Positions 3,304-47,127 of a stretch of 47,127 nucleotides of DNA are shown here, piece by piece. This DNA comes from an uncultured Candidatus Saccharibacteria bacterium (GTDB lineage Bacteria > Patescibacteriota > Minisyncoccia > Minisyncoccales > CG1-02-41-26). Below the pieces are notes generated by a model that had not been told where the DNA came from, searched no databases, and worked only from the letters and a program-made list of their open reading frames with translations. Each line of letters starts with the position of its first letter. Position 1 is the stretch's first letter. The translations under genes and the position numbers were made by a program. Where the stretch lies: NCBI GenBank assembly GCA_964421005.1, contig CAYQUV010000002.1, positions 1 through 47,127 of the forward strand. The letters run 5' to 3'.

Positions 3304-3463
3304 TATTTAATTATTGAATTTTTTAACAGACAACCTTTAATTTTGTTCTACAAATATTGCTTTTGGCAATGAAATGATACTTTGGAATACCGTTTTCCGT
3401 CTCAAAACTATCTTCACCGGTCCAATTAAAAATTTATCCGGCAAAAAATAACTGAAACTAGGG

Positions 3464-4123: not shown

Positions 4124-4138
4124 TTTGGCTAATAATTT

Positions 4139-4834: not shown

Positions 4835-4886
4835 TACTTTATTTTACCATTTCACGAAATTTCAATCAAAATTGAACAAAGTTTAA

Positions 4887-13696: not shown

Positions 13697-13745
13697 TCCG
13701 TAATTAACCATAATTAACCATAAAATTTACAACCAGCCCTAATCT

Positions 13746-27481: not shown

Positions 27482-27932
27482 TAAAGAAGATAAAGAAAAA
27501 ATAGAAAAGGTAATTAAAGATTTTTTCAAAAAGATGACCTGGGAAGAAAGCCCGGAGAATATTGAGATAAGAGATAATATTGTTTCTTTTGAGTTAGATA
27601 CGGCAACCCCCGAGATTTTAATTGGCAGGAACGGCCAGATTTTGACTAATATTCAGTATCTTCTTTCAAAAATACTGAACAAACAAAGTGAAGAGAAGAT
27701 TTTTGTTGATTTTGATATCAATCATTACAAAAAGAAAAAAACAGATTACCTGAAAGAATTGGCTAAAAATACGGCCGATGAAGTTGCTTTAACGGAAAGA
27801 GAGAGGGTTTTGCCGGCAATGACTCCTTTTGAAAGAAGGATAATCCATCTGGCTTTGAGTGGAAGGGAAGATGTTAAAACGGAAAGCGTGGGAAAAGAGC
27901 CAGAGAGAAGAGTTGTTATTAAACCCGCTTAA
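27474..27932 (+). CDS. Jag/KhpB-type KH plus R3H RNA-binding protein
   Basis: 152 aa. Overlaps the yidC stop by 8 nt. C-terminal R3H motif (MTPFERRIIHLAL). Conserved yidC-jag linkage. Confidence 0.85.
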   Translation: MLNKEDKEKIEKVIKDFFKKMTWEESPENIEIRDNIVSFELDTATPEILIGRNGQILTNIQYLLSKILNKQSEEKIFVDFDINHYKKKKTDYLKELAKNTADEVALTERERVLPAMTPFERRIIHLALSGREDVKTESVGKEPERRVVIKPA

Positions 27933-27953
27933 AAATTAATAGAGTTACCAATT

Positions 27954-28012
27954 AAAAAATAACCCATTCGTTGATAAGTTATATTTATCAACCTCTCCGC
28001 GGGTTATTTTTT
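27954..28012. terminator. Nested, bidirectional stem-loop between convergent operons
   Basis: Outer arms AAAAAATAACCC (27954..27965) / GGGTTATTTTTT (28001..28012). Inner hairpin GTTGATAA (27970..27977) / TTATCAAC (27985..27992). The right arm overlaps the stop of the 625-aa ORF. Confidence 0.6.
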
Positions 28013-29881
28013 AATTGGATAAATAGCGATAGCAGAAGCGCAAGATTTAGGAAGTATAAATCCTAATCCCCGAATTATACCGCATTTACCAATTTTATTA
28101 TCGGTTAAATCCATATCGCTTTTAGTGAAAATCTCAGAATGTTCACCGGGAGTATCTTTATCCCAGCATTTATCTGGATTCCTAGTACATTGTGTGTCTC
28201 TTTCAGGATCAATTTTGTTCTCAAAAAGAACTACTAAACAATTTCCTTTAATTTCAATAGAATTAATATTGTCGCCAAATTTTGTAGGTTCGGATTTCTT
28301 ATCCCCATTTAATTTTCTCAATTTTCCCCCTTCTATTTCTTCTGGAATATTTTGAGGGATATAAATCGGTAAGGTGCTGGTAGCAATCCAAATATATTCG
28401 CTAAGTTCAACTTCTTTTCCGGGGGGAGTATAGACTAAACATTCTCCTTCCCCATATTTATCAGTGCAGATTCTAACTTCCTCACAGGTAGAAATATTAC
28501 TACTTATCTCTTTGATATAAATTGAAGAAGCTTTATTTAATTTTCCATACTGGTCTATATCATCAGCTGATATTCTTCTAAACTCACCGGGTTTAAATTC
28601 TTTTCCTGTTGATTCTTCCGATGGTATGTTACCGGCTAATACATCTGTTTTCTCTACTTTTCCTTGAGTATTTATTTTCCATCCTTCTCTTGTTCTTTCT
28701 TCAAAAAATATTCTCAATTTTCCGTCTCCGTAAGGGTCATCATGCAACACGGCGATAAAATCACTTGTGTTGTCGTTTTTTATTCCTATTTTTTCTATTT
28801 TGTCATCAAGGCCAATATTAACAAGATTTTCCATATCAGAGATTTTACGATATTCTCCAAATCCTCCGGATTTATATAAATAAACTCCCGGTAGCATACT
28901 TTTTATTTGAACGGACAAAGGCGGATGTTCGACAAGGGAAGCCTTTTTAGTTTCTATAATTTCCTTTTTGTCTGGGTCATAGTCATAGTATTCTACTTTG
29001 GAACTGAATAGGCTAAAAAAGGGATTTTCGATAAAATCAATCATATGTATCACTCCCTGTGTTGCTCCTCCAATTTTATTTACATTCTCTGCTCCTTTTA
29101 CGCTTCCATCAAGAACATCTATTAATCCCTCAGAAGTATATTCATTATATAAAGATCCTTCAAAATCCTTTTTAGCAAAAAGTATTACTTTGGTTTTTCC
29201 ATATAAAGAATCTCCCGAAAAGGCAATTGCTCTAAAGTTAAAATTTTCAAAATTTACTTGGGTTACATTTCTATTGTTGTCCCAGTGGGTAGCCACAAAT
29301 CTCCCGGCGTCTTTTTCCCCCAATTCTTCTTCTTGAAGGTTTGAGATATTGTATCTTAGAGGATAAGCATTTTTGGAAGCGATAAGGTCTTCAAGAGTAG
29401 CTGAAATAACTTCTTCCGAAGAATTGTTTTTAAGGAGCGCTTTGAGTGCTTCGGCGCCCGTTGAGTCAAGTAAAACTGTTCCCGAGAAAACCGGCTCCCT
29501 TTCAACTGTCACAACTACTAATTGAGGGTTAATAGTTATTAAAATCAAATAAGAGCCAAGCAAGATTACTAAACCTAAAAAGGAATTCAGAATTCTGCCC
29601 CGAGCCGTTTGCATTATAGCAGGATTGCCGGTTGAGGTGAGATACATTATCCCAGCGTAAATTAAAGACCCAAAAGCGATAATAGCCCCGATTATAATAG
29701 CCCAGCTTACAAAATATTTGATAACACCTCCCAAAGGAGTGTCAATTCCAATGGTTTGCTCAGTGCCGGGCGGGGCAGGATAGTTATATTCTAAATCTAA
29801 AACTGCGAAACTAAAAAGAGGCAGAAATAACAGAATTGTTATTAATAAAATTTTGAATAGGCCTATTTTTGTAATTTTCAT
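28004..29881 (-). CDS. Exported 625-aa protein: N-terminal T4SS-pilin-like (TrbC/VirB2-type) two-helix module fused to a large unknown ectodomain
   Basis: Signal-like N-terminus, YPAPPGTE, then two TM helices with AGIMYLTSTGNPAIMQTARGRILNSFLGLVILLGSYLILITINPQLV. This module is clearly paralogous to the N-terminus of the 1809-aa ORF. Last gene of the operon, 3 nt after the previous stop. Confidence 0.75.
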   Translation of the reverse strand: MKITKIGLFKILLITILLFLPLFSFAVLDLEYNYPAPPGTEQTIGIDTPLGGVIKYFVSWAIIIGAIIAFGSLIYAGIMYLTSTGNPAIMQTARGRILNSFLGLVILLGSYLILITINPQLVVVTVEREPVFSGTVLLDSTGAEALKALLKNNSSEEVISATLEDLIASKNAYPLRYNISNLQEEELGEKDAGRFVATHWDNNRNVTQVNFENFNFRAIAFSGDSLYGKTKVILFAKKDFEGSLYNEYTSEGLIDVLDGSVKGAENVNKIGGATQGVIHMIDFIENPFFSLFSSKVEYYDYDPDKKEIIETKKASLVEHPPLSVQIKSMLPGVYLYKSGGFGEYRKISDMENLVNIGLDDKIEKIGIKNDNTSDFIAVLHDDPYGDGKLRIFFEERTREGWKINTQGKVEKTDVLAGNIPSEESTGKEFKPGEFRRISADDIDQYGKLNKASSIYIKEISSNISTCEEVRICTDKYGEGECLVYTPPGKEVELSEYIWIATSTLPIYIPQNIPEEIEGGKLRKLNGDKKSEPTKFGDNINSIEIKGNCLVVLFENKIDPERDTQCTRNPDKCWDKDTPGEHSEIFTKSDMDLTDNKIGKCGIIRGLGFILPKSCASAIAIYPIKK

Positions 29882-29884
29882 AAT

Positions 29885-31015
29885 TTATTCTCTTTCTAAT
29901 GTTGTTTCGTGGCAGCAAACATAGTTATAATAACTCCCCCCACAAATCCAGGCAATACACTCTTCTTCAGAGAGCCGCTTTTTACATTCAATATTTACCG
30001 CAACTATACCAAAAGGACCTACTGATGTTTCTACTGATGGTTCATCACAGCAAAGGCAATCTATACAATCTTGAGTAAGTTTTCCTTGTCCACAAACCTT
30101 TTTACAGGTTCCGTAAATTCTGTAATTAATTTTGGCTAAAGGAGACGCTTCCTCATCAGGTTTTTTTTGACCTAAACAATCTTTACAATCATCAATCGGG
30201 CCTTTTTCACAAACGCCCCGGCAACTCTCTGACCAGGGCTTTGGCCAATAAACTCCTTGAGCTAAAGCATCGCTGCATCTCATAGGATACCTGGCTCCTA
30301 ACTCTCCGGCTTCAACTTTTTTTCTTTCTATCTCTGACAAACTACAACTTCTTTTTCCTTTTTCAGCCGCCGAATGAAGCCACTCTCTGGCTAAATCTAA
30401 TTTTCTTCTTACAAATTCAGGCCATCTAATTAATTCTCCCACCGATTCTCCCTCTTTTCTTATATCTTCAGTAACTTTGTATTTTTTCTCGCTAAATATA
30501 TCACTAACTTTTTCGTAAGTACCCTCCACACCTCCTTTCATTGTTTCTAAGAATTTATAATAATCTTCAAGGTCGGGACAGGGTTCGCCAATACATTCTT
30601 TGACCGGGCAGAGGGGTATATGGAATCCTACTAAGGGCTTCGGTTTCTTAAAAGGAAGTTTAATTTTAAGCGAAAAATCAGGGGCTTGGTCAATAACCTG
30701 AGGCTGGCAGGCTGAAAAATCGCAAACTTCTTCAGGATTTTTATATAATTCGCTAACCTCACTTTGGGTTTGTTCAATAGCCGAAGAGAGATAACTTCTG
30801 ACATTCTGGAGTTCTGAATAAACTTCTGTCATTAATTTTAAACTTTCCTCAACCGCTTCCCCGGTTGGGATTGGCTCATCGCAAACTATCCTGGTGAGAG
30901 TAAATTCTTGGGCAGAAACCTTGTTTTTTTGATTTGACAGAAAAGCAGAAACCAAAAGGACTGGAACCAGAATTACCATTAAGAAATAAAGAGAAATTTT
31001 AATTTTCTTTGACAT
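29885..31015 (-). CDS. Exported or anchored cysteine-rich protein (376 aa), unknown family
   Basis: N-terminal hydrophobic anchor or signal. About 23 Cys by hand count. Duplicated C-x3-C-x7-C-x2-C unit and CC doublets near the C-terminus. Confidence 0.7.
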   Translation of the reverse strand: MSKKIKISLYFLMVILVPVLLVSAFLSNQKNKVSAQEFTLTRIVCDEPIPTGEAVEESLKLMTEVYSELQNVRSYLSSAIEQTQSEVSELYKNPEEVCDFSACQPQVIDQAPDFSLKIKLPFKKPKPLVGFHIPLCPVKECIGEPCPDLEDYYKFLETMKGGVEGTYEKVSDIFSEKKYKVTEDIRKEGESVGELIRWPEFVRRKLDLAREWLHSAAEKGKRSCSLSEIERKKVEAGELGARYPMRCSDALAQGVYWPKPWSESCRGVCEKGPIDDCKDCLGQKKPDEEASPLAKINYRIYGTCKKVCGQGKLTQDCIDCLCCDEPSVETSVGPFGIVAVNIECKKRLSEEECIAWICGGSYYNYVCCHETTLERE

Positions 31016-31063
31016 ATATCTTATTTTACCTCTTCAAAAAACTAACTTCAATTATTGATTAAT

Positions 31064-34000
31064 CTATTTTGTATAAGGTTGCATCCACTCATAACCTTCT
31101 AATACCTCTACTTGGTGTAAGAAAGGATAACGGAGAATATAAACTAAATAACAATACGGGTCCTTTAAAGGAGAAGGAGTCAGAGGAAGCCCGGAAATAC
31201 AGAAAGGTAGATGGCAGTAACTTTTGCCGCAAGTACAGTTGGCATTGGCAAAATTTATAGCCGTAGCTAAAGCCCAAACATTTTGGGTTTTCTTTTTTAT
31301 TTCTTCCGCCCAATTATAAAGCTCGGTAACTTTTTTGAAATAAAGACAGTCCTCTCCGCGTCGGTCTTCACCACAAGAATAATCTAACCAGACATTTAAA
31401 AGCCTCATTTTTAAATCTCCGATTTTTACATCCCAGTGTTCCTCTTCTTTTCGCAACAGATTAAGATGATTCAAATTCTGTCTCATTATAGCGAAATTGG
31501 ATTCTATAACCGAAAAAAGATGGTCAATTCTAGGGCAGACCGGTCCTCCCCGGACACTGGTTAATCCTCCGTAGCCGATGGCTGGGTTTGGTATACATTC
31601 TAGGGGTTTGAAACTTAATCCTTCTTCTTCCAACTGTGTTTCGGATATTGCTTTTAATTTTTCAGGAAGTTCTTCAATCATTGCTATTAATTGTTGAGCG
31701 CTTTCGTAAGCCCTTCTGGTATCTTCAATAGTGGTCTTTATTCCCCGGAAAAACAAAGTACCTGATTTTATCCCCAAGAGGACGGAATAAACTTCCATTA
31801 CTCCCTCTAAAGGGGTTCTGATGTCAAATAATTCAGTGGCGCATAACTCTCTTATTTCCTTTAACTGTTTTTCGTTTTCTTCTTTTGTTAAATCAGGGAT
31901 TTCTATTCCGAGAAGTCCGGAAATTTCTGTTCTCCACTCTTCATCTGCCAGATTTTCTTTTAATTGAGCAAAATCATTACATTGTTGTTCCAGACCCTTT
32001 TGGTATTCTAACTCAGAGCAAGTTTCTCTAAATTCTTTTGTAGCCACTTCAATAATAATTTCAGAGGTTAAAACTTCGCTAAGCTCTGTGCATGATGTAT
32101 ATTTTGACCTTCTTTCAAAATATAATCTATCTTCCCGTCTCTTTTGTACTGGTTCGCATATGTTTGTTTTCCACCATTGTTTGGGGTCACTTATTTCTTC
32201 GCTTTTTACTCTTTGAGCAAACTCTTCTATCGATGTTGTTTCAAAACCTTCTATTGAGGGACCCTTTCTGCTTAATCCTGAAACCAATTCATATCTGATT
32301 TGACACTTTTCGGTTAATTCTACTTTATTGTCGAGCAAGTCTTTGTCTAACTTACCCATTTCTCCTGTTTCTTCACAATTCTCTGTATTGTACTTACAAT
32401 CACATTCTATTTGTTTGGGGTCCATTTTCAGAATAAGGTCTAATTTTTGACAGCCGGATTTCATTTTCTCGTTGCCAAAAATTATTGTTCTTAAACTCGG
32501 ATATTTTTTATTCTTGATTTTATTTAGCTCATCACTCGGATTATCCCTGAATTTTTCTAAAAGTCTTTCGTCACTAACATATCCGGTGATAAAATCTTTA
32601 TCAGAACTAAATCTTTCTGAGAGCCGCGGGGCGATTCCATAATCGATGAAATTATCAAACAATTTCTTTATATTAGTTAAGGAATTATCTATTCCATCAA
32701 ATTGTTTCTTAAGAAAAGAGAGTGGACTTTGAAAGAACTTATCTTTGAAGCTTTCAAAACCTTCTCCACCGCTGGTTTTAATGCCCTTGAATCCTATTTC
32801 TAAATCAACATCTGTTATCTGAGGAATAGGGATTTCAAGGATAGGTTTAATTTCAGCAACCAACTTTCTTATTTCGTCAAATTCTGGGATTATTTCATTT
32901 AATTTTTCAATACCATTGAGAAAATGCCAGATTTGTTCAAATGTCTTTGTATTCTCTTGTTCAAAACATTTAAGTCGACCGAGAAATCCTTCCCCGGAAC
33001 TACCTTCCGGACAACTGTAAGTACCAACGAAATTTTTGATACTTTCCGGGTCCTCAAAAAGGAGTTGATTAATACCTTCCAAAGGACCGGTTGGAGAAAA
33101 GATTTCTTTCAATTTTTCTCTATTTTTTACTGAAAGACCAGGAGTATTCATTAGAGAATCTTTGAGTTCCATAATTTTATTGAGAGCGCTTAAAGCATTA
33201 TCTAGAATTAAAACAATATCTTGTGAAATTTCTTTAGTTTCTATAATATCTTCAACATATTTCTTTTGACTATATTCTTCCTCTCCCTTGTGCCAGATTT
33301 GATTTATTCGCAGAGAATGATTTTTCAGTTGTTCAATTTGAGATTTTAAATCTCCTATTTTATCCAAAGCAGTGTCAAAATCTTGATAAACTTGTTCTGG
33401 TATTCTCTCTTCGGGCAGGCTGCAACAATTTATTTTATTAGCAAAAGCATCCCAATTTTTACGGATTCCATTTACAAACCTGCCATCTGGACAAGACCTT
33501 AATTCTTTGTCTGCTAAAGGTTGTTCATTACATCCCGGTTCTCCTCCTGGAACTGAATTACAACAGGTCATTTCATCAGCCTTACTCCGTTTGTTTTTAT
33601 GGATTCCAGTTACAAATCTACCATCCGGGCAGTAGTTCCAAATACTATTTGATAAACCTTTACTACTACACTCTCGTTCTCCTTCCGGAACTGTTTCCGG
33701 TAAATTACAGCATCTTATACGATTAGCTTGACCTTCATCGTTTTTATGAATGGCATCTACAAACATTCCTTCAGGACAGTATTCCAAACCACCACTGTCC
33801 CATTCACCCCAGCCGCCTGCTTCTAAGTGTATCTCTATACATTCTGGTTTAGCTTCTTCAATCGTTTCTTCTATTTCGGTCAATTTATCTTCGGTTGTCT
33901 TTAGTTGCGAACTTATAATTGGAATTGTTAAAAATTCTGAGAGGGAAGATTGATCAATATTCTCTAAACCCTCGATTATAGGGTCAAAATCAACTCTTAG

Positions 34001-36304: not shown

Positions 36305-36327
36305 ATTATTTTTATTTAGTTAATCCG

Positions 36328-39300
36328 TTAATAATCAGTTAATCTGTTAAGAGGAGGCCCGTCTACTAAAACATCGCCTAAAAGTTCTAAATGGAAGGTA
36401 AATTTATCAACAATACATTGCATAATACTTACACAGCACTTATTTTCTTTTTCTATTCTTTTTCGGCAGCAAAGCTTCAAATCATCTATCTCTCTATAAT
36501 CCTCTTTGTTTTCATCGCGGTAGCATTTCTTATCTTTTTCTTCTCTTTGGGTCGCTTCCCGGCAGATTCGGCAGCCATCATAAAAGCAGCATTTCTCATC
36601 TTCTTTTCTTTCTCCTATCTCTATTTTACACTCTTCCGTTCCTTTTCCCCGGCATCTTGGAACGCAAACCAACCCTTCTCCTAAGGAACAACATTCTTTG
36701 CTTTCTATTTTATAAACTTCTTCCGGGGATGAGCATTTTCCATTTACTTGTTCCACATTTGTAGCTGGCCTACATACACCCGCCATTTCATCGGCTGTTT
36801 TTCCTCCCAGTTCTACCCCTATTAATTTTCCAAGAGCTTTGCCCAGGATAGCAATACCTTGTTTGGGCCATTCCAGTAAAACTTGGTTAGAAGCATCTCT
36901 GATTCTAGCCTCCATATTAACTGTTGCTGCATTAATTCTTGCGTCAAGATTTTCTTTTGCTATAAAGATATTAGCCACAGTATCGGTTAGGTGAAGAGCT
37001 TTGCCTAGAGTATCTACATAACGTTCTCCTAAAGGAGTAGTCAGCGCTAAATAATCCATAAGAGAAGGAGAGATTGCTATTTTGTCGCTGATAAGTTTTT
37101 GCGGAAGAAGTTCTTCAATTAATTGAGCTGGAGTTTTTGCCAGAATATCTTGGATTCTCTGCCACTCTTCCCAGCCTAATCTTTGATTGAGACAAGCTTC
37201 TCCATGAATAATTTTTCCTTCAGGACCTGTCCCACATTCCGGATCAATTGCTCTAAAAATAAGTCTGATAATTTCCTCACTCATAGGTCCCTGGTTTATC
37301 TGGTTTCCGATTGGAGTCGCCAAGAAATCAGCAAAGGCTATCATATTTTCTCCCATATTTTGTTCTTGGAACGATTCAATCTCAAATCCTTGAGTTTCAA
37401 GTGCTTCTTTTACTCTTTCTAAATCTACCGGTTTGGTGTAAACATCAGCATCTAAATTATCTTCTGTTCCATGCTGATAAAAATAAATAGCTTCTGCCCC
37501 AGCTTGAAGCGCTTTTGATTCTAATTCTTCTTTATCCTCTTTATTAATAACTAAAGAAATTATTCCTTCAAATGTTTGAACTTGGCTCTGTTCCAGATTC
37601 ATTCCTATTTTTCTGAGAAGAGTTACCGGTGTGTCGCCGTATAAATAACGCAGGAGATCATTTAAGGCCTCCGGCCTTTCTTCGGGTTTCAACTTATCTC
37701 TAATCAGGGCAAATAAAATCTGATACTCTTTTGGATGAACATAATAGACAAGGTTTTGGTCAAGGCCAAAGATTTGAGCCGGATTAAAATCCAACAAAAG
37801 ACAGCTTATATATTGCTCTTTGCGCTCTGAGGGAACTTCTTCTCCCGGAGCATCTAAAAGAATCTCTAAAGCTTTGGCAGTGGTTGGCCTTTCCAAACTT
37901 TCCATTGAATACCTGGGACCCCTTGCTTCAGCAAATTCTCTCGCCATTATATTTTCAAAAGTCCAGTCTGGAAAATCTTCTCTGAAGTCTTTGATTACTT
38001 TTCCGCAGACACCATCATGTAAAAGCCCGTAAGGAGTTTGGGCAAGAAAATTTCTTCCCCGGTAATTCTCACCTTTCAAGTAGCGCATTATGCCAAAAGA
38101 AGGCCAGGTAAGGACATCATAGAGCGTTGTATTTTGAGCAATCCAAGCAACAAAAGCTTTGGCAAAATCTTCGCCTTTTTGTTGCTGAAGGGATAAATCA
38201 TTAAGCCTGCTAATGCCTTCTGCTTCTTCTTTTGGCGAGATATCGCTTTTTTCAGGATTTCTTTCTCCCCAATCTCTGGTCCAATCATTGTATAATTCTC
38301 TTTCTTTGATTAATCGGTCAGTATCTTTTCTTATATCTTGATTTGGAAAAGCAACTGTTAACCATTGATAACTTTCTATTTCTTCTTGTTTTTCTTCTGA
38401 AGTTCTTTGGTCTGTTGGTTCTATCAAATTATAATGCTTTTCTATCCCATATTTGAAGAGAGTAAAAGCAATTGAGTTATTAACTGAAATCTTACAGCTT
38501 TCACATTGGAAATTAAGATTATTTGGTAAATCTTGTTTTTTGCAGCCTCCATAACAACCAACTCCGTTACATTCTTCAGCTACTTTTCTGTCTACTCTAT
38601 TACATTCGGTATTCAAGAGATTCTTGATTATTGTTCCGATTGGCCTGTTCCAGCCGGACAAGGGATTTTCACAAGCGTACCATCTGAAATAACAAAAAGC
38701 CTTTTCTGATTCAGACATTAAACTCCACTCCGTTTTTAATGTATCCGGATAGGGGAAAAGTCCTCCTATTTCTTTTGTTCTCACTTTATTACAAGCATCC
38801 TTTATAGTCTGGTTACTTTCTCCTCTTTTTTGGATATTAAGTTCTCCGCAAATAACCTGTTTTGGGGTTCCGATGATGAGGTCTTTGATGTTGGTTATTT
38901 CCGGCCAGAGAAGTTCAGCCGGAGATTTATTCAGATATTTATCCCTGATATCATCAGGTATAAATTCTTCAATTTTATTCTCAAGAGGTTTTTTAACTTC
39001 TTCTGGTAAATATTCAAAAGGCTCTGAATGGAGACGTTTTTCAATTTCGCAAGCATATTTTCCCACATTACTTCCAATTTCTATTTCATCCATTCCTTGA
39101 TAAAGTTTAATTGTTTGTCCTCTTTCTGCTTTTTTACAAATATCGGCTAATATCTGGTCTATATTGCTTTCCAAATACCCGGCTATTTGTTTAGGCAAAA
39201 GGTCTTTAATTGTTGAAGATAAAAATTGATGGAGTTTTTTCTGGAAATCGCTTAGTTGTTTAAGATAAGGTTGTAGAGGGGTTAGAATTTCATCTTCCAC

Positions 39301-41757
39301 CCAAACCTGGGCATATCGGGTTAAGGTATAAACAGAAGTTTGAGTTAGAGCAACTAGAAGTTGCTCAGCGAAATTAACTGTTCCGGCAAGAAATTCTCTT
39401 GTCCATTTTGAAATATTTTCCCTGGTTGGTTTTATACTTCCCCAGTCTATCCACTCTCCATAACACTCGCCACATTCTTTTCCTTTTTCGGCCGTTCTGT
39501 CCCAGCAATAACCAGCATAATGGCAAAAGTCATCTTTATTTTCTTCTGTTTTAAATGAAGGATGGTCGATTCCTTCACTTATTTTATCCCATTCAGTGTT
39601 TATTTCTTCAGGAGTCGGATGAAGACACTTTCCCTCTCCCGTTTTTTCATTTGTAACTTGAAAATATCTTCCTTCTGTTACAAAACATTTCTCTCGAGGA
39701 AGATATTCAGGAGCGTAATCAGGATTATTCTTTTTCCATTTCTCTATTTGTTCTATAGCAGGCATACTTAGCTGGGTGCCTAAATCAGCAACTAATTCCG
39801 CTGTTTTATTATCCGCTCTTTTTTTGAGGTCCTTTAAATTCTCCATCAGAAAAGCATCAACTGTCTGGAGATAGCTTGAAACAAAGAATGGTAAAACTTC
39901 TGTCATTCTTTTTACTAAGTTTTCCCTTAAAAAAGGAACTTGCTCTTCCAAGCTTTGTTTTAAACCTTTCTGTAAAACGGCCGGCAAAAGGTCAATTATT
40001 TCACTGCCCAAAATCTGATTCAGGTCTCTATCAAAAATTACATCTCTTAATTTTGTTTTGAGAATTCTTTGGATTTCTTCGGGCAGGCGCTCTCTTAAAT
40101 CTTCAGTTAAAACATCAACCAGCTTATTGGAAAGGAAATGAGGAGGAATGTTTTGTTTTCTGCAATCCGCTTCGCTCATTCCCTTCTTCCGGCAATCTGC
40201 TATCATTTTGTCGGAAATATCCCTTGTTATTCCTTCTCTCATTTTTTCCAAAAATGCTTCGGTAAAATCTAAATTTTGCCCGGCTAAAGTTTCGCCTAAA
40301 TAGTCGGCCAATCCTTCTCTTATTGTCTTTTCAACAATATCTGAAAGATTTTCTTCATCAAGTATAAATGTCCCTTGACCAAAAGCAGAGCTTAGGCATT
40401 CTTGAATCATTTGTTCAATATCTTCCAAACTAAGCTGGGTTAAAACAGAAAACAAACTTGCCCTCTGGCTCTCCCGGTAAATCCTCTGATTTTCTCTTCT
40501 TATTTCCGGGGGAATGATTTCGCCTTCCAAAGGAGCATAAAAAGTAAAAGGGTCACTGATGGCAGGACTCATTTTTACTTCCTGGCTTTGGGGGAATTGC
40601 TTTGGTTTCTCCAACTCAATTTCATAACCCAAATCTTTTATGGCTTCTTTGTGGCTGAGGAAGTCCTCTTGGAAATCAATTTCTAACAATCCGGAGATTA
40701 AAAAGTTCCCTGTGTTTATTCCTAAAGTTTTTTCAATTAAACCTAATTGGCCAGTGGAAAGTTTTATTTTCTGGCCTTGGAGTTCGGCTAAAAGTTCCTG
40801 GAGTCGTTCCCTTTTTTCTTTTATTTCTCTTAAATCGCACTTTGGAGCTGAGATTTCTTGGCCTTTTTCGTTTATATCCTCTCCGGTTCCGCAATTATAA
40901 CAGCGGGTTAAGCAGACATTCTGTCCTCCCTTTAAAAGTTCTTCGAGTTCCTCTACTGTTTTTGCCCCCATTTTATCCAAAAAACTCTGACTTTTTTTCT
41001 CTTTTTCAGACATCCCGCCGACACATTTTCCTTCTAAACCATCCCATTCTACATGATATTTTGTGTTTCCGCATTGACAATTTTTTAAAGCACTCATTAA
41101 GTTGTTAGTTGTTTCAACTACATCGGTCAAAATACCTATAATCTCAAGCAAAGGAGCTTCAATTAAATGAACCTTATCTCTTGGGAATTCGCCCAAAGAG
41201 AGGAGAACTTCTCTCATCTCTTCATTGGTAGAAGTTGTTTCGTCAAGGTCATTAATTGTTTTTTCAAGGAGTGTTCCGAGAGGAATCTGTAAAAAAGTAA
41301 CTTTTTCAGCAGAAATCAAAGGAGAAACGCCGGGAGTTATTATAGAAGGAGGAGCTTCTACCTTAAAAACAAGCAATTGAGGATTAATTACTGCTAAAAT
41401 TAAATAGGAACAGATTATAATTAAAAGACCTAAAAGTCCTTGGTTTATTCTGGTTTTGGCAATAACTAAAACAGCCGGTTTAGCGCCGGAAATTAAATAT
41501 AAAACTCCGCCATAAATTACAACAGTAACTGCTACAGCGATAGCAAGTACAAAAAATAGGCGGAGAAAATAATTTATATAGAGAGGAAAAGCCTCCTGAG
41601 CGGAAATGATTCCTCCTTCTATTTTTTCTTGAATCTGGTTTGGAGTTTCAGCTCCTGGTATTGGAGGGTATTTTATCTCCAGAGCAAAAGCAGAATTAGC
41701 CCCGAAAAGAAAAACAATCAAAAGAGAAACAAAAAGAAATTTTTTAAACCTTACCAT
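36328..41757 (-). CDS. Giant protein (1809 aa): signal peptide plus T4SS-pilin-like module fused to a roughly 1650-aa ectodomain with a Cys-rich tail
   Basis: Uninterrupted 5.4-kb ORF. Signal (..ANSAFA/LE), YPPIPGAE, two TM helices with GGVLYLISGAKPAVLVIAKTRINQGLLGLLIIICSYLILAVINPQLL. The last ~150 aa contain 17 Cys by hand count, including four CC doublets. Confidence 0.8.
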   Translation of the reverse strand: MVRFKKFLFVSLLIVFLFGANSAFALEIKYPPIPGAETPNQIQEKIEGGIISAQEAFPLYINYFLRLFFVLAIAVAVTVVIYGGVLYLISGAKPAVLVIAKTRINQGLLGLLIIICSYLILAVINPQLLVFKVEAPPSIITPGVSPLISAEKVTFLQIPLGTLLEKTINDLDETTSTNEEMREVLLSLGEFPRDKVHLIEAPLLEIIGILTDVVETTNNLMSALKNCQCGNTKYHVEWDGLEGKCVGGMSEKEKKSQSFLDKMGAKTVEELEELLKGGQNVCLTRCYNCGTGEDINEKGQEISAPKCDLREIKEKRERLQELLAELQGQKIKLSTGQLGLIEKTLGINTGNFLISGLLEIDFQEDFLSHKEAIKDLGYEIELEKPKQFPQSQEVKMSPAISDPFTFYAPLEGEIIPPEIRRENQRIYRESQRASLFSVLTQLSLEDIEQMIQECLSSAFGQGTFILDEENLSDIVEKTIREGLADYLGETLAGQNLDFTEAFLEKMREGITRDISDKMIADCRKKGMSEADCRKQNIPPHFLSNKLVDVLTEDLRERLPEEIQRILKTKLRDVIFDRDLNQILGSEIIDLLPAVLQKGLKQSLEEQVPFLRENLVKRMTEVLPFFVSSYLQTVDAFLMENLKDLKKRADNKTAELVADLGTQLSMPAIEQIEKWKKNNPDYAPEYLPREKCFVTEGRYFQVTNEKTGEGKCLHPTPEEINTEWDKISEGIDHPSFKTEENKDDFCHYAGYCWDRTAEKGKECGECYGEWIDWGSIKPTRENISKWTREFLAGTVNFAEQLLVALTQTSVYTLTRYAQVWVEDEILTPLQPYLKQLSDFQKKLHQFLSSTIKDLLPKQIAGYLESNIDQILADICKKAERGQTIKLYQGMDEIEIGSNVGKYACEIEKRLHSEPFEYLPEEVKKPLENKIEEFIPDDIRDKYLNKSPAELLWPEITNIKDLIIGTPKQVICGELNIQKRGESNQTIKDACNKVRTKEIGGLFPYPDTLKTEWSLMSESEKAFCYFRWYACENPLSGWNRPIGTIIKNLLNTECNRVDRKVAEECNGVGCYGGCKKQDLPNNLNFQCESCKISVNNSIAFTLFKYGIEKHYNLIEPTDQRTSEEKQEEIESYQWLTVAFPNQDIRKDTDRLIKERELYNDWTRDWGERNPEKSDISPKEEAEGISRLNDLSLQQQKGEDFAKAFVAWIAQNTTLYDVLTWPSFGIMRYLKGENYRGRNFLAQTPYGLLHDGVCGKVIKDFREDFPDWTFENIMAREFAEARGPRYSMESLERPTTAKALEILLDAPGEEVPSERKEQYISCLLLDFNPAQIFGLDQNLVYYVHPKEYQILFALIRDKLKPEERPEALNDLLRYLYGDTPVTLLRKIGMNLEQSQVQTFEGIISLVINKEDKEELESKALQAGAEAIYFYQHGTEDNLDADVYTKPVDLERVKEALETQGFEIESFQEQNMGENMIAFADFLATPIGNQINQGPMSEEIIRLIFRAIDPECGTGPEGKIIHGEACLNQRLGWEEWQRIQDILAKTPAQLIEELLPQKLISDKIAISPSLMDYLALTTPLGERYVDTLGKALHLTDTVANIFIAKENLDARINAATVNMEARIRDASNQVLLEWPKQGIAILGKALGKLIGVELGGKTADEMAGVCRPATNVEQVNGKCSSPEEVYKIESKECCSLGEGLVCVPRCRGKGTEECKIEIGERKEDEKCCFYDGCRICREATQREEKDKKCYRDENKEDYREIDDLKLCCRKRIEKENKCCVSIMQCIVDKFTFHLELLGDVLVDGPPLNRLTDY

Positions 41758-41809
41758 TTTATTTGTATTTTACCCCTAAATTCGTCTTGATTCGTAAATT
41801 TATTGATAA

Positions 41810-42190
41810 TTAGCTGCTTTTTAACTCCGAATAAACCATTAGAATGAAGCCGGGGTAAATATCTCCCAAAACAGGGCATATTTCTACCAATAACTTTTTC
41901 CACTGTTTTTTAAGAAACTTTTTAACTAAACCTTGAGCTGCTCCTCTTTCTTTCCCAGATTTTGGGTTTTTAATAGACATACTTCCTGAACGGAAAAATA
42001 TCCACATTCCTATAACAGTAAATCCAAAAACATTGACAATTTGTCCCAGCAAGACTCCAATCCCGAAAGCAGCTACTAAAATTATGGAAATCCAACCTGC
42101 CACGTCAAACAGTCCCGCTATAAAGAGCATCATAATTCCCTCCGGACTAAAAAGAGCTCCTTTTGGATTGTTTGTTTCCTCTCTCATCAT
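41810..42190 (-). CDS. Small polytopic membrane protein (126 aa) of the T4SS-like operon
   Basis: Two or three hydrophobic helices separated by a basic loop (KNPKSGKERGAAQGLVKKFLKKQWKK). Lies 12 nt downstream of the VirB4-like gene. Confidence 0.6.
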   Translation of the reverse strand: MMREETNNPKGALFSPEGIMMLFIAGLFDVAGWISIILVAAFGIGVLLGQIVNVFGFTVIGMWIFFRSGSMSIKNPKSGKERGAAQGLVKKFLKKQWKKLLVEICPVLGDIYPGFILMVYSELKSS

Positions 42191-42202
42191 TTTAATTTTT
42201 CT

Positions 42203-43990
42203 TTATTTCTTTAATTTTTTCTTGAGCTCTTTTATTTTCTTTACTTCCTCGGGAGAAGAAGTGATAATCTGGTCTTCAGCATAACTCGCTACTACCTTAA
42301 GAGCAACCCTTTTTTGGCCGGCAATAAAAATTCCTTCTCCAACATCACATTCTAGAAGAAGATATTTTTCTTCGTCAGCCAGGTTGAAAGTTTTTTGAAC
42401 AAAATCAATAGTAGCGGGACTTTGTTTCATTAGAAACTGTAAAGAAGAATTAGTGATAATCGGTTGACCGTAAGCCGATTTCATAAAATCGCCGATGTCC
42501 TGAGTAATAGTTGAAACACCCAGCCAATATTTCCTGGCTCTTTTACAGATGCCGAACAAAAACGAAGCGCCGTCTTCCGATTGCATTATCCACCATGCTT
42601 CATCAACCAGCAGAATTCTTTTTTTCAACTCGGCTCTAATACTGTTCCAGATATATCTTAAAATAATAAACATAGCCATTGGCCTTAATTCCTCCTCCAT
42701 ATCTCTAATTCCAAAGCTGACTAAGCTCTTTTCCATTGAGACATTTGTCGGATTGTTAAAGAATTGGGCATAATTTCCGGTGGTGAATTTTCTTACTCTT
42801 TCAACCAGAGATTCTGCTCCCTCCATACCTTCAAGAATTGTTTGGAAATCCGACATTAGAGGAATTCTCTCTTTCCATTTGCTCGGGTCGGATTCGGGGG
42901 TAATATCTCTGGCTTTGTAAGTTTCAATAATTGCTCTATCAATAATAGAATCTTCTTCCGGAGTTAATCCCCCCAACATTATTCTGAAAAGGCCTACCAG
43001 ATTTATTGCGTTTGATCTTAGAGTATCCTCCGGTTTCTCGTCTTCGGTTGGAGGAGGAAGATCAAAAGGATTTAAATGATGGGGTGAAGTCAGAGAAACA
43101 TTAAAGAAAGAGCCACCTACTGCTTCAGCCAGCCATTGATATTCGTTTTCCGGGTCTATTATTATCACCGGAACATCCTGCATCAGATATCTCAAAGCTT
43201 CTAGTTTACAAAAATACGATTTCCCGCTGCCGCTTTTTGCGAAAACGCACATATTACCATTTTCTAAAGTAAACCTATCAAAGAGAACCAAAGAATTATT
43301 ATGTTGGTTTATGCCGTAGAGAATTCCCTCGTTAGCACTTAAATCCGGGGAAACGAAAGGGAAGATACTTGACAAAGGAGCGGTATTCATCGGCGTGTGA
43401 ACCAGAATTTCATCCAGACCGTAGGGTGAAGTTGAGATAAAACCTTCCTTTTCTCTTAACAGAGTCGGTTTTATATAAATCAATCTTGACTCAAAAACCG
43501 ACCTCATTCTAATTTCAATATCCCTTAATTCTTTTTGGCTGTCTCCGTAAACAGTGATATAAAGCCCTAATCTGAAAACTCTTTCACTTGCCGTTTGGAG
43601 GGCATCTCTTAAGTTTTCAATATCCTTGTATGCGGTTTCCAGAGTCGGGTCGCGGATAAGGCCTTTCTCTTCTCTTTCTATCAGTTCGGCTTGAACTTCA
43701 GTTATTTTTTTTCTAAGTTGTCTTAAAATTACTGCTGAATCTACTGGATGGATATGAAAAGAGATATCCAAAGGATGGTTAATATTGATAATTGGCGACA
43801 TCCAGCCGGTTGAAAGATATCTCGGATAAGAAAAAACAAAAAAAGTTTTGGAAAATCTTTCTCCCAATCTTAAATAATTTTGAGATACTTCAACCGACGA
43901 TGGAGCAACAATATCCTCAATTTTTATTTCTTCTTTTTTTAATTTTAATCCTTTAATTTCTCTTTCTTTTTTTAAAAAGGGCAGTTTCAT
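42203..43990 (-). CDS. virB4: VirB4/TraC-family T4SS ATPase (short, 595 aa)
   Basis: Walker A FAKSGSGKSYF (about aa 250). Walker B ILLVDEAWWIM. Downstream GVSTITQDIGDF. N-terminal ..YLRLGERFSKTFFVFSYPRYLSTGWMSPI..PLDISFHIHP typical of VirB4 pre-ATPase domains. Confidence 0.85.
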   Translation of the reverse strand: MKLPFLKKEREIKGLKLKKEEIKIEDIVAPSSVEVSQNYLRLGERFSKTFFVFSYPRYLSTGWMSPIININHPLDISFHIHPVDSAVILRQLRKKITEVQAELIEREEKGLIRDPTLETAYKDIENLRDALQTASERVFRLGLYITVYGDSQKELRDIEIRMRSVFESRLIYIKPTLLREKEGFISTSPYGLDEILVHTPMNTAPLSSIFPFVSPDLSANEGILYGINQHNNSLVLFDRFTLENGNMCVFAKSGSGKSYFCKLEALRYLMQDVPVIIIDPENEYQWLAEAVGGSFFNVSLTSPHHLNPFDLPPPTEDEKPEDTLRSNAINLVGLFRIMLGGLTPEEDSIIDRAIIETYKARDITPESDPSKWKERIPLMSDFQTILEGMEGAESLVERVRKFTTGNYAQFFNNPTNVSMEKSLVSFGIRDMEEELRPMAMFIILRYIWNSIRAELKKRILLVDEAWWIMQSEDGASFLFGICKRARKYWLGVSTITQDIGDFMKSAYGQPIITNSSLQFLMKQSPATIDFVQKTFNLADEEKYLLLECDVGEGIFIAGQKRVALKVVASYAEDQIITSSPEEVKKIKELKKKLKK

Positions 43991-44004
43991 AATTATTTAA
44001 TAAA

Positions 44005-44649
44005 TCATTTAATAAGTTCAGGTAATATTTCAGGATAATAGCCATATTCTGCTTCTTTTGGATGATGTAAACTCCAGAAGAGTTCAATTAATTCGGGGGT
44101 GGTTAAGGGAACGGCTGTCAGCCCGCAGCGTCTCAAACCAATAGCTACAAATTCCATTCTTTGCCAGAGTTGCTCTTTGCATCTTTTAAAATTTTCTTCG
44201 GTTAGACCAAATTCTCCTTTTTTGCCAATTCCTTTTAATAAACCGCCGGTTACCCCTATTGCTTCGGAAAGAGTGAAGGGAACAACGATTAAGAATTCCT
44301 TTCTCATAATTGTTCCTTCTTCGACCAGCCCTTCAACGAATTTCCGATACTCAGCAGTTTGAACTTTCAGAAGTTCATTCTGCTGGTTTTTCTCAAGCTC
44401 TTTTAATTTGTCAAAATAACCGGTGATATTTAATCTCCTTGATTGGACCACAATTTGGCAAGAAAAATCTAATGAATTTAAAAAACTCTGAAATTGATAA
44501 ATGGTTGCTTTTTGTTCTTCTTCCGATTTTAAATCAAAGTTTATTGAAGAAACCAAAAGAATCCCTCTTAAAGCTTTATTTCTTAAAACAATCACTCCCT
44601 CTCTGATTTCGGCTATTTCTAAGAACTTTTGGGATGGAGTTTTAAACAT
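44005..44649 (-). CDS. 214-aa soluble protein resembling the extreme N-terminal domain of long (Gram-positive-type) VirB4 ATPases
   Basis: FLEIAEIREGVIVLRNKALRGILLVSSINFDLKSEEEQKATIYQFQSFLNSLDFSCQIVVQS matches, from memory, the N-terminal pattern of PrgJ/TcpF/Orf16-type VirB4s. No Walker motif. Sits between the VirB3-like and VirB4-like genes. Confidence 0.5.
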   Translation of the reverse strand: MFKTPSQKFLEIAEIREGVIVLRNKALRGILLVSSINFDLKSEEEQKATIYQFQSFLNSLDFSCQIVVQSRRLNITGYFDKLKELEKNQQNELLKVQTAEYRKFVEGLVEEGTIMRKEFLIVVPFTLSEAIGVTGGLLKGIGKKGEFGLTEENFKRCKEQLWQRMEFVAIGLRRCGLTAVPLTTPELIELFWSLHHPKEAEYGYYPEILPELIK

Positions 44650-44679
44650 AAAATTGTGAAGCTTTTAATTAAAAAATTT

Positions 44680-45087
44680 TTATCTTAACCCTCTTTCTAT
44701 TTTGGAAGAAAGTTTCCTTAGTTTACTTTCGGGAGAAACTTTTAAAGGAGCCTCTTCCTTTTCTTTTTTCTTAACCCCTTCTTTTTCTAAAAGTTTAATA
44801 ACCGGTTTCTCTTTTTTTTCCCAGATGTATCTTTTTGCCGAAATAAAATATCCAAAAAACTGTCCTACTAAGTGATAGAGAGGTATTCCTTCAATTCTAA
44901 ACAGTAAAAGAGCCGCAGTTCCCCCTCCGACAATAAAAAGAACGAAAACAAAGGTAGAGAGAGGTAAAAGATAATACAAAACAAACAAAATTATACCAAC
45001 TATGCCGAGATAAGCTAACTGCTTGAAAGTTAAAAAAGCAAAAATCTTTGTTTCTCTTTCTAAAAATTTTGGTACCTTAAACCTCAT
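44680..45087 (-). CDS. PrgI-family (VirB3-like) two-TM protein, first gene of the operon
   Basis: 135 aa. ..KIFAFLTFKQLAYLGIVGIILFVLYY.. followed by a second TM and a basic tail. Size, topology and position immediately upstream of VirB4 match VirB3/PrgI. Confidence 0.6.
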   Translation of the reverse strand: MRFKVPKFLERETKIFAFLTFKQLAYLGIVGIILFVLYYLLPLSTFVFVLFIVGGGTAALLLFRIEGIPLYHLVGQFFGYFISAKRYIWEKKEKPVIKLLEKEGVKKKEKEEAPLKVSPESKLRKLSSKIERGLR

Positions 45088-45251
45088 GGGAGTTTATTTT
45101 ATTATAACCTTTATAAAGATTATAACACACCCTTGATAAATAGAAAATCAACAGCCAAAAAGGTTTGAGTTTCAATTTCTCTTCAGGGACTATTAGAAAA
45201 CGGTTAGATTTTTTAAGATCGAGTCCGGAATTACTATTTTTTAGTTAGCTC

Positions 45252-45280
45252 TTGACATTAAGGAACTTTTTTGTTATAAA
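45252..45280 (+). promoter_or_regulatory. Candidate sigma70-type promoter for the 196-aa membrane-protein gene
   Basis: TTGACA (45252..45257), 17-bp spacer, TATAAA (45275..45280), in the divergent intergenic region. Confidence 0.45.
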
Positions 45281-45377
45281 TCAAACAGTTCTTTGACACA
45301 AAGCAATGGATGAAGATGGGAAAAAATAAAGATAAAGTGAGGTAAATAAAAAAAGAGAGCATAGACAAAAAAGAAAG

Positions 45378-45968: not shown

Positions 45969-45972
45969 ATCT

Positions 45973-45998
45973 AAGGCAGGAAGATTTTCCTGCCTTTT
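45973..45998 (+). terminator. Intrinsic terminator
   Basis: AAGGCAGGAA (45973..45982), loop GATT, TTCCTGCCTT (45987..45996), running into a T-tract. Confidence 0.8.
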
Positions 45999-46076
45999 AT
46001 TTTAGAAATTAAATTTCTTTTTTAGAACTAACTTAGAACTAGAATTATCAGAAATAGAGAATGTCTAACCAACACT

Positions 46077-47127
46077 TCTAGGACTGCAAGACATTTGTAA
46101 CACATAGGGTATACTAAAAATAGGTCGAAATTAGTTTAAAATCTTAATTTTAGTATATCTTTATGTCTCAAGAACAAAGATTAGTTAATTTAAGGCTCTC
46201 TTGGTTTCGCCACGTCCAAGAGATTACCCATAATGTGGCTAAAACTTGCCGTTATTACGGCATAGCCCGGAGAACTTACTATTTCTGGTGGAATAGATAT
46301 CAAGAGAAAGGCATTGACGGATTAAAAGATCGTTCTAGAAGGCCTATTCATAGCCCGAGGGCCACTAAAGCCGAGGTTGTAGAGAAACTTATCTATCTGG
46401 GGCAACATTATTATTTTGGTTCAAAGAAAATTCAGATGTATCTTTTAAGATATCATGATATCAAGATGGCTGCCTCAACTATTCACCGTATTTTAAAGAA
46501 ACTAGGAATGAATAGGTTACCAACTAATCAGCGATACCGCCCCTTAAGAGAAAGATTCAAAAGATACGAGAAACCAATTCCTGGTCATTATCTCCAAATC
46601 GATGTTAAATTCTTAGCTCCGATTCCGGGAGTGAGCCAACGAAGATTTTACCAATACACTGCTGTTGATGACTGTACAAGAATTAGAATTCTAAAAATCT
46701 ATGAGAGATGTAATTAAAGCAACTCTATTGAATTCGTGGATTACACCTTGTCTAAACTGCCTTTCCCGGTGCACGCTATTCAGACTGATAACGGCTCAGA
46801 ATTTGGACCACAGTTTCATTGGCACATCCTAGACAAAGGCATTCAACATCGCTACATTAAACCTCATACTCCAAGACTAAATGGCAAGATAGAACGTTCT
46901 CACCGTATCGACGAAGAAGAATTTTACCGTATGCTTCAAGGAGTAGTGATTGATAATTCCAAGCTCTTTAACGAGAAACTTCGAGAATGGGAAACCTTCT
47001 ACAATTTTCAAAGGCCGCATGGCTCTCTTGCCGGTCGAACCCCTTTTGAGAGGTTGCAAGAGAAGCTTAAAGAATTATCATTAACAAAAGGTACTCTATG
47101 ATGTTATCGATGTCTGCCGAACCTACA
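46077..47127 (+). mobile_element. IS481-family-like insertion sequence ending at the window edge
   Basis: Single transposase frame. Candidate imperfect terminal inverted repeats: left TCTAGGACTGCAAGACATTTGTAACACATAGGGTA (from 46077) against the reverse complement of the last bases, TGTAGGTTCGGCAGACATCGATAACATCATAGAGTA. About 25 of 36 positions match with one gap. Confidence 0.6.
46163..47101 (+). pseudogene. IS481-type DDE (rve) transposase interrupted by a single in-frame TAA
   Basis: The two track ORFs (46163..46717 and 46736..47101) are in the same frame, separated only by the TAA at 46715..46717. N-terminal HTH region. DDE elements LQIDVKFL, YQYTAVDDCTR, IQTDNGSEF, HTPRLNGKIERSHR. Confidence 0.75.

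Follow-up and report, generated by a model that had tools for sequence, protein, structure and literature searches.

A chromosomal VirB4 operon beside dnaA encodes large cysteine-rich exported proteins, two with VirB2-type hairpins, and may build a host-contact structure in Patescibacteria

The present analysis concerns an operon of type IV secretion system (T4SS) character on contig CAYQUV010000002.1, from an uncultured Candidatus Saccharibacteria bacterium. The whole stretch that was analyzed, 47,127 nt in length, is called the window throughout. The operon spans 28004..45087 on the minus strand and consists of eight co-directional open reading frames (ORFs), designated g1 to g8 in transcription order and separated, from g1 to g8, by gaps of 30, 14, 12, 52, 23, 48 and 3 nt (Table 1). 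A first-pass annotation of the window had reported eight co-directional ORFs lying 3-52 nt apart, and all of its coordinates were borne out.

Table 1. Features of the operon and its borders, in window coordinates.
Feature	Position	Strand	Description
g1	44680..45087	-	PrgI/VirB3-like small membrane protein, 135 aa
g2	44005..44649	-	TrsD / VirB4 N-terminal-domain-like, 214 aa
g3	42203..43990	-	VirB4-family ATPase without the N-terminal domain, 595 aa
g4	41810..42190	-	small conserved polytopic membrane protein, 126 aa, no family match
g5	36328..41757	-	signal peptide, VirB2-type hairpin and ~1,680-aa Cys-rich, mainly helical ectodomain, 1809 aa
g6	31064..36304	-	signal peptide and 1,720-aa Cys-rich secreted protein, 1746 aa
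g7	29885..31015	-	signal/anchor segment and Cys-rich protein, 376 aa, 23 Cys
g8	28004..29881	-	signal peptide, VirB2-type hairpin and ~500-aa β-rich ectodomain, 625 aa
Nested palindrome between convergent jag and g8	27933..28012	.	RNA fold
IS481-like transposase fragments	46075..47127	+	HTH_28, LZ_Tnp_IS481 and rve_3 domains

The first three genes resemble the motor of a T4SS. The g3 product matches the CD1110-family VirB4 model NF045971 with E=1e-106 and 358 bits against a cutoff of 325, over model positions 179-734 of 752, and it matches PF19044 with E=7.8e-24. The TraC-F-type (4.7e-49) and VirB4_CagE (7.3e-31) models also match g3, both under their own cutoffs. Its Walker A (AKSGSGKS, residues 251-258) and Walker B (ILLVDE, residues 459-464) motifs are both intact. 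The g1 product matches PF12666 PrgI (E=9.6e-8, 32.9 bits against a cutoff of 27) and shows one strong hydrophobic segment at residues 32-50. The g2 product matches NF041427 TrsD (E=5.6e-6) and aligns to positions 11-107 of NF045971, and a protein identical to g2 bears a precomputed PF26593 TraC-like match. On NF045975, which models the single-chain Mycoplasma VirB3-VirB4, the three products align collinearly (g1 at 15-117, g2 at 109-211, g3 at 282-893). Thus, the three genes together would equal one VirB3-VirB4 unit, in which the VirB4 N-terminal domain is predicted to be supplied in trans by g2. These matches identify g3 as a genuine VirB4 with VirB3-like and VirB4-N-like partners. The first-pass annotation had named the three products in the same way from their sequences, and it had considered that the ATPase might belong outside VirB4/TraC; the 358-bit score on the CD1110 VirB4 model places it within.

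The last four genes encode exported proteins. By hydropathy, an N-terminal hydrophobic signal/anchor segment is present in each of g5 to g8, as the first-pass annotation had proposed. It had also proposed that two of the large proteins begin with a pilin-like module, and these proved to be g5 and g8, which carry a VirB2-type hairpin by hydropathy and, for g8, in an AlphaFold2 model. In both proteins a signal peptide that looks cleavable is followed by two further transmembrane helices (the hydrophobic segments of g5 are at 8-26, 67-85 and 107-125), and g6 and g7 have one N-terminal segment each. Between g5 and g8 the hairpin shows 35-37% identity across about 120 aa, and the conserved motifs of the hairpin are LE..YP..PG, S.G.P and SYLIL..INPQL. 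The g8 product matches PF18895 T4SS_pilin with E=1e-4 (22.7 bits against a cutoff of 26.6) and NF045849, the Mbov_0395 pilin-like model, with E=1.4e-4, under the cutoff. The g5 product itself has no PF18895 match, which is found in two of 12 g5-family members. Homologous hairpins in relatives pass the PF18895 cutoff with 30-37 bits, and the hairpin module of Southlakia epibionticum also matches TrbC/VirB2 PF04956. The topology of the hairpin proteins implies that their large C-terminal parts face outwards, and their cysteine content fits this orientation. There are 50 cysteines in g5, 61 in g6, 23 in g7 and eight in g8, nearly all of them invariant within each family.

The hairpin proteins share with the VirB2, TraA and TrbC pilins a long signal peptide, the two-helix hairpin, a short basic loop and linkage to virB3/virB4. 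Classical VirB2-type pilins are about 70-120 aa when mature, carry no extra domain and polymerize with lipid into a thin helical tube. In the window, by contrast, the C-terminus of the hairpin protein runs on for 500-1,700 aa, and g5 (1809 aa) and g8 (625 aa) fall outside the size of a classical pilin precursor (~100-150 aa). With so many extra residues per subunit a canonical thin VirB2 pilus lattice seems unlikely; a structure of low copy number, such as a stalk, tip or collar, would be easier to accept.

Relatives of the operon were sought by scanning species-representative genomes with the g5-family alignment, which returned 76 loci, nearly all from Patescibacteria metagenome-assembled genomes (MAGs); the named genomes among them belong mostly to Parcubacteria-group candidate phyla. 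Linkage to VirB4 was counted over 83 related loci, and the nearest relatives found were all Patescibacteria MAGs. An identical VirB4 is present on two metagenome contigs. The same eight genes in the same order were found in loci L003 and L005, in which g5 is 38-46% identical to that of the window, and in L011, in which it is 53% identical. Retention of the eight-gene order at 38-46% g5 identity indicates that the arrangement is not due to chance. The first-pass annotation had asked whether the giant genes keep company with VirB4 in other genomes, and in these three loci they do. Identity to L003 is 80% for VirB4, 76% for TrsD, 49% for PrgI, 47% for g7, 38% for g5, 36% for g8, 26-42% for g6 and 28% for g4. 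Conservation is thus high in the motor (76-80% for the ATPase genes), and the exposed proteins evolve fast (26-47% for g4-g8).

The linkage extends to further loci. VirB4 lies within about 10 kb of a hairpin ORF in 67 of the 83 loci, mostly co-directional and with the hairpin ORF directly downstream, and PrgI stands beside TrsD and VirB4 in 57 loci. The Patescibacteria-type cassette of virB4, trsD, prgI/virB3 and PF18895-type genes is therefore present both in the window and in 57-67 of the 83 loci. The typical order in relatives is PrgI, TrsD, VirB4, in some cases g4, a large hairpin protein, in some cases g7, and a g8-like hairpin protein. Homologues of g4 occur in 24 loci, directly after VirB4 wherever both were seen, and share the motifs SPEG..ML, FFG.W, KRLKWLRP and VY.ELK; no Pfam or NCBIfam match was found for g4. 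The idea that g4 is a cryptic small pilin was rejected, with an hhalign probability of 0.4% against the hairpin.

The ectodomains of the exported proteins were examined individually. The AlphaFold2 model of g8, built from 16 sequences, has a predicted local distance difference test score (pLDDT) of 74 and a predicted template modelling score (pTM) of 0.65. It contains helices at 5-27 (signal) and at 50-82 and 87-116 (hairpin), followed by a disordered linker and a β-rich ectodomain. The best Foldseek matches of g8 are βγ-crystallins: 7n38 (E=0.017, probability 0.99, target-normalized TM score 0.59) and 3hzb (TM score 0.63). No Pfam Crystall match was found in g8 itself; its relative P0033 carries PF00030 Crystall. 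The crystallin match is good on the target side and weak overall; it suggests that the g8 ectodomain may be a surface or adhesive module.

For g5, 14 relatives were found among 5.8 billion proteins, 1,091-2,316 aa in length and with identities as low as 24%. Intermediate forms of about 1,230 aa share g5 aa 244-870. A model of g5 aa 131-1330, dominated by long helices, is of low confidence (pLDDT 59, pTM 0.28), and Foldseek gave no meaningful match with it. The g6 gene is present in 13 loci and directly follows g5 in every locus in which the upstream side is visible; its product has conserved N-terminal (1-360) and C-terminal (1260-1738) modules around a variable middle. For g6 no Pfam or PDB relative was found, the PDB matches being only generic helical bundles. 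A Pfam scan of all g5- and g6-family members gave only T4SS_pilin, one YebC-like insert and one chance match. The g5 and g6 giants are one clade's expansion. For g7, 26 relatives share 18 invariant cysteines; the gene occurs in 16 loci and precedes the g8-like gene wherever that gene was seen, and no Pfam or PDB relative of it was found. Sequence and profile searches with g5, g6, g7 and g8 against PDB chains returned nothing specific. Adhesin-like display, which the first-pass annotation had proposed, remains a plausible hypothesis. A hidden M23 hydrolase in g5-g8 was also considered and rejected; the hidden Markov model (HMM) used was contaminated by hairpin-M23 fusions, so that the weak matches fall on the hairpins and on no M23 region.

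The YebC-like insert belongs to the g5 of the window only. It is about 75 aa long, lies at g5 aa ~1395-1465 (window 37363-37573) and resembles the YebC/TACO1 middle domain, with a Pfam score of 28 bits against a cutoff of 27. The window's own YebC (19073-19795) is 44% identical to it over 66 aa. The insertion site is a hypervariable hotspot at which other family members hold unrelated inserts. The segment looks like a housekeeping domain captured by a surface protein.

The hairpins of the window are not unusual among their relatives in being fused to a large domain. Among 133 complete hairpin ORFs in related loci none was shorter than 150 aa: eight were of 150-300 aa, 62 of 300-500 aa (the mode), 38 of 500-800 aa, 11 of 800-1,200 aa and 14 above 1,200 aa, with a maximum of 2,239 aa. 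An exhaustive HMMER search with the two window hairpins gave 18,590 representative clusters at E<=1e-3. The best 150 of these have a median length of 566 aa and include 18 of at least 1,000 aa and eight of less than 200 aa. PF18895 was matched by 53 of 77 panel hairpin proteins at E<=1e-4. The domains fused to the hairpins in these 77 proteins were Peptidase_M23 (five), Lamin Tail Domain (LTD, three), VanY, NlpC/P60, SLT_3 and C39-like (two each), and M15 and β-helix/NosD (one each). In addition, phmmer with a LysM-M23 query matched the first-position hairpin proteins of L019, L039 and L063; Pfam assigned M23 only in L063. In the relatives, then, hairpins bear M23, NlpC/P60, SLT, VanY or adhesin-like domains, which argues that the hairpin is probably a handle for host-contact modules. 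A literature search on giant or fused pilins in bacteria of the candidate phyla radiation found no prior description. Giant cysteine-rich ectodomains on the hairpin, together with the absence of classical-size pilins in this lineage, thus appear to be new.

Three further observations concern the hairpin and its fused domains. Four proteins (P0081, P0133, P0140 and P0190) have three to six tandem VirB2-like hairpins in one polypeptide of 500-790 aa; they are fused "pilin arrays" and would be polytopic. In L043 (8759-11857), an ORF of 1,032 aa begins with a right-handed β-helix/NosD domain (E=1e-22) and has its hairpin in mid-protein (aa 439-501), a domain order unlike the usual N-terminal hairpin that may reflect a merge during ORF calling. 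Lastly, a 423-aa protein with two LTDs (E=1e-36) is encoded at 16230-17501 of the window, and LTD is the domain fused to hairpins in three related loci, for example L036.

The core of this system is already published for Patescibacteria, and only the pilin-fusion variant appears to be new. The phylum survey of Quiñonero-Coronel et al. (2025) described a monophyletic Patescibacteria VirB4 clade related to the FATA class of mating-pair formation (MPF-FATA) systems, with TrsD, PrgI/VirB3, VirB6 and VirB2-like (PF18895) genes widespread near virB4, and virB4 often beside dnaA, dnaN, rnpA and rpmH, especially in Paceibacteria and Microgenomatia (PMC12102498). A 2025 review gives the same picture and speculates on a pilus conduit (PMC12857230). 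The operon agrees with the survey in its VirB4 type, in having TrsD and PrgI/VirB3 directly upstream and a VirB2-like gene directly downstream of VirB4, in having no relaxase or type IV coupling protein (T4CP) nearby, and in its position beside dnaA, dnaN, rnpA and rpmH. It differs in that the survey treats PF18895 genes as pilins whose size is not discussed (the word "giant" has 0 occurrences), whereas here the hairpins carry 500- and 1,680-aa ectodomains and two more cysteine-rich exported proteins are encoded; the window also lacks VirB6-like and M23 genes.

The closest experimental counterpart is the T4SS cluster of S. epibionticum ML1, SEML1_0006-0019. By transposon sequencing, Wang et al. 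(2023) identified this cluster, with its pilins, as essential to epibiotic growth, and they recognized neither a relaxase nor a coupling protein in it (PMC10633639). Both are monoderm-type T4SSs with VirB4, PrgI, TrsD and VirB2-type hairpin genes, and that of S. epibionticum has an extended VirB6 and an array of PF18895 hairpin genes. Its pilins SEML1_0017-0019 are encoded by 381-417 nt (~126-138 aa), compared with 625 and 1809 aa for the hairpin proteins of the window. S. epibionticum belongs to a different class, the Saccharimonadia. Its pilins form a tandem set of six, beside genes for a peptidase and a lysozyme, whereas the window has g6 and g7. Tubular structures have also been seen by electron cryomicroscopy at a Patescibacteria-host interface (bioRxiv 2026.06.21.733656).

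Homologues of VirB4, PrgI and TrsD are likewise shared with Gram-positive MPF-FATA systems, namely pGO1 Trs, pCF10 Prg, CTn2 CD1110 and the Mycoplasma integrative and conjugative element (ICE) Mbov_0395/0397. For the Mycoplasma element, the VirB4 model is collinear with g1-g3 and the Mbov_0395 pilin-like model weakly matches the g8 hairpin. The MPF-FATA conjugative T4SSs are mobile elements with a relaxase, T4CP, VirB6, VirB8-like protein and VirB1 hydrolase, and they move DNA. They generally use separate LPXTG adhesins (e.g. PrgB), not pili. In the window, by contrast, those extra parts are not present, and the locus lies on the chromosome, with synteny kept between species.

The chromosomal setting supports this distinction. 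The gene dnaA lies 2.4 kb from the 3' end of the operon, and the genes that lead up to g8 are dnaA, rpmH, rnpA, yidD, yidC and jag, in that order; the first-pass annotation had given the distance to dnaA/rpmH as about 2.4 kb, and the order was verified. In L003 and L005 the operon is followed by jag, yidC, rnpA and dnaA, and nusA, ksgA and a comM-like gene lie on its far side. The remaining genes of the window include a two-component system, polA, tsaE, a PilB-like ATPase, ruvB, yebC, ruvC, a class-A penicillin-binding protein gene and dnaN, and outside the operon the window is ordinary chromosome. The GC content ranges from 26 to 38% across the window and is only slightly higher in the operon than in the flanks. 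Scans of the window for tRNAs and Rfam families found nothing. At the 3' boundary, where the first-pass annotation had placed a nested terminator (27954..28012), the RNA fold (27925-28025) has a free energy of -29.2 kcal/mol and z = -5.66, and 0 of 200 shuffles folds as well. The palindrome is likely to terminate transcription in both directions and to bound the operon on its 3' side; a simple terminator scan left it unflagged.

Upstream of the operon, a polytopic ORF of 196 aa lies on the opposite strand, followed by the IS481-like transposase fragments, in line with the membrane-protein gene and insertion sequence (IS) noted in the first pass. The HTH and rve_3 fragments of the IS lie in two ORFs, possibly frameshifted, and the window ends inside the IS, 2 kb upstream of prgI. 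Contig L001, from another sample and one of the two metagenome contigs with the identical VirB4, matches window 41386-46074 at 99.8% identity. At the point where the IS starts it runs instead into a Band_7/SPFH gene (region L001 1-1653). The IS is thus a strain-level insertion that lies outside the T4SS.

An operon of this kind could supply mating-pair formation to a conjugative or integrative element, with the relaxase, coupling protein and oriT beyond the window. The VirB4 is of a conjugation-derived family and scores above the CD1110 conjugal-transfer cutoff, an IS is present upstream, the window ends 2 kb from the operon, and VirD4-like genes occur elsewhere in many Patescibacteria genomes (PMC12102498). 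This explanation is nevertheless very improbable, and the locus is not a conjugative element, for several reasons. First, no relaxase, T4CP or ICE-type integrase was found in the 47 kb, where the IS481-like transposase is the only mobile gene, and the 25-kb loci L003 and L005 likewise have no relaxase, T4CP or linked integration or replication module. Secondly, housekeeping genes flank the operon on both sides in L003 and L005. Third, the operon keeps one chromosomal position in different species, which argues for vertical inheritance. In addition, its GC content is barely above that of the flanks and the IS is strain-specific. Lastly, only 15 of 109 relaxases are near virB4 across the phylum (PMC12102498). 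The view of the first-pass annotation that this is not a textbook conjugation machine therefore stands, and had already been published for such systems (PMC12102498, PMC10633639, PMC12857230); the linked coupling protein, relaxase or oriT that it had allowed for was seen in neither the window, L003 nor L005, and neither of its other two refuting results came up in them.

The first-pass annotation had also described the apparatus as stripped-down, lacking a relaxase, VirD4, VirB6, VirB8 and a hydrolase. Pfam and family HMMs did find none of these in the window; as a statement about the system the description does not hold. VirB6/TrbL-like polytopic homologues occur in 42 of the 83 loci, on the same strand as VirB4 and 1.4-4.9 kb from it, mostly of 450-970 aa, and the loci include the closest relatives L003, L005 and L011. 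This VirB6-like protein scores just under threshold on the TrbL/VirB6 models (PF04610, 24.1 against 25.9 bits; also TrbL_4 and TrbL_3). A LysM-M23 peptidase is present in 25 of the 83 loci. Upstream of prgI, L003 and L005 have a LysM-M23 peptidase gene and ksgA as well as genes for a polytopic protein of ~300 aa and its partner of ~380-400 aa. In the window, tblastn and family HMMs found no VirB6-like protein, ~400-aa partner, 139-aa protein or M23, and the 42-member VirB6-like family HMM gave no match at E<=1. As the window breaks off within the IS, at 2 kb upstream of prgI, the VirB6-like and M23 genes are most economically placed elsewhere in the genome. The stripped-down appearance is probably an artefact of the window, cut on this side by the IS and by its own edge. 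In most relatives the VirB6/TrbL-like protein is a single "extended VirB6" of 450-970 aa (e.g. L011 3029-5089); in L003 (3602-5841) and L005 (2136-4173) it comes in two pieces, a polytopic protein of ~300 aa and another protein of ~380-400 aa.

If VirB6 were truly missing, the hairpin proteins themselves might form the channel of a minimal importer of host DNA, RNA or nutrients. Family HMMs found no VirB6-like gene in the window, import has been proposed as a possible function (PMC12102498; PMC12857230), and some proteins of the wider family are polytopic with three to six tandem hairpins. Against this, a VirB6-like gene is near VirB4 in about half of the relatives, the nearest included, the upstream side of the operon was rearranged by the IS at the point where the window ends, and absence from 47 kb is not absence from a genome. 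We consider a minimal importer improbable.

The explanation we favor, with moderate confidence, is that the operon encodes a chromosomal, origin-proximal Patescibacteria T4SS that derives from the MPF-FATA conjugation machinery of monoderm bacteria, is no longer used for conjugation, and builds a host-contact structure with the ectodomains of g5-g8. The bacterium itself probably belongs to the Parcubacteria/Paceibacteria group. The g5-g8 proteins would reach the membrane or surface by Sec/YidC. VirB4 dislocates the VirB2 pilin from the membrane, and because it acts so on the pilin we infer that it also extracts the hairpins of these proteins. Recognition, extraction and assembly of the hairpins would fall to the VirB4/VirB3/TrsD motor together with a VirB6-like protein whose gene lies elsewhere in the genome. 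The product would be an envelope-spanning stalk or fibre, and the g5-g8 ectodomains would make up its outer part or decorate it. With this distal part the structure would contact the host cell. The hairpin is probably a placement handle and not the repeating unit of a thin pilus. A more general form of this proposal, which we put forward tentatively, is that in Parcubacteria/Paceibacteria-type T4SSs the VirB2 hairpin has ceased to be a pilus subunit and serves as a general handle by which VirB4 draws Sec-inserted proteins, from wall hydrolases to Cys-rich giants of 2,000 aa, out of the membrane and mounts them on a host-contact organelle, with g5-g8 as its body or tip.

Several points weigh against the proposed host-contact structure. 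A domain of 500-1,700 aa per subunit is hard to fit to a VirB2-like helical filament. The action of VirB4 on hairpin fusions is argued from VirB4/VirB2 biology. The channel component is assumed to lie outside the window, in which no VirB6-like gene was found. The adhesin role is putative, since g5, g6 and g7 have no recognizable fold, and the βγ-crystallin match of g8 is weak (E=0.017). Neither the g5 nor the g8 hairpin reaches the PF18895 cutoff, and both are assigned to the family through homologous relatives that do. Consensus scans for promoters and terminators did no better than chance and were uninformative on transcript structure, including whether there is a single transcript. In addition, the Sec signal peptides mean that export itself can proceed without the T4SS.

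The last three of these points would equally suit a simpler explanation, in which g5-g8 are ordinary surface or wall proteins encoded beside a T4SS, the hairpin is a mere membrane anchor and VirB4 is not involved. All four proteins have Sec-type N-termini, and the M23, NlpC/P60, VanY and LTD domains fused to hairpins also occur on ordinary envelope proteins. We regard this explanation as unlikely, again for several reasons. First, the hairpin is not a generic segment but has conserved motifs, matches PF18895 in 53 of 77 relatives and matches PF04956 in S. epibionticum. Secondly, hairpin genes are tied to VirB4/TrsD/PrgI in 67 of the 83 loci. Third, the gaps of 3-52 nt and the gene order kept at 38-46% g5 identity argue for co-function. 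Lastly, the small pilins of the homologous Saccharibacteria cluster are essential, like its other T4SS genes (PMC10633639).

Two other regions of the window contain genes of possible interest. A PilB-like type II secretion/type IV pilus assembly ATPase (T2SSE, E=3.7e-115) is encoded at 12560-15038, preceded by a 378-aa ORF without a Pfam match. It is probably part of a type IV pilus machinery, which Patescibacteria also use for host contact. At 2707-5606 and 6743-7711 there are HAMP-domain proteins and ORFs of 198, 231 and 239 aa without Pfam matches. This cluster adjoins a PAS histidine kinase and response regulator; so rich a sensory block is unusual in a small genome.

A large part of bacterial diversity falls within the Patescibacteria, which live attached to host cells. 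No T4SS before theirs had been shown to be essential for the growth of its owner. The present analysis refines this published system and does not add a machine of a new kind. It gives specific candidates for the exposed parts, namely g5-g8 and their relatives. If the hairpin does act as a handle, these proteins would represent a previously undescribed mode of T4SS-dependent surface display. "Pilins" with large ectodomains would shift the model of the system from a thin pilus conduit to a host-contact structure assembled by the T4SS.

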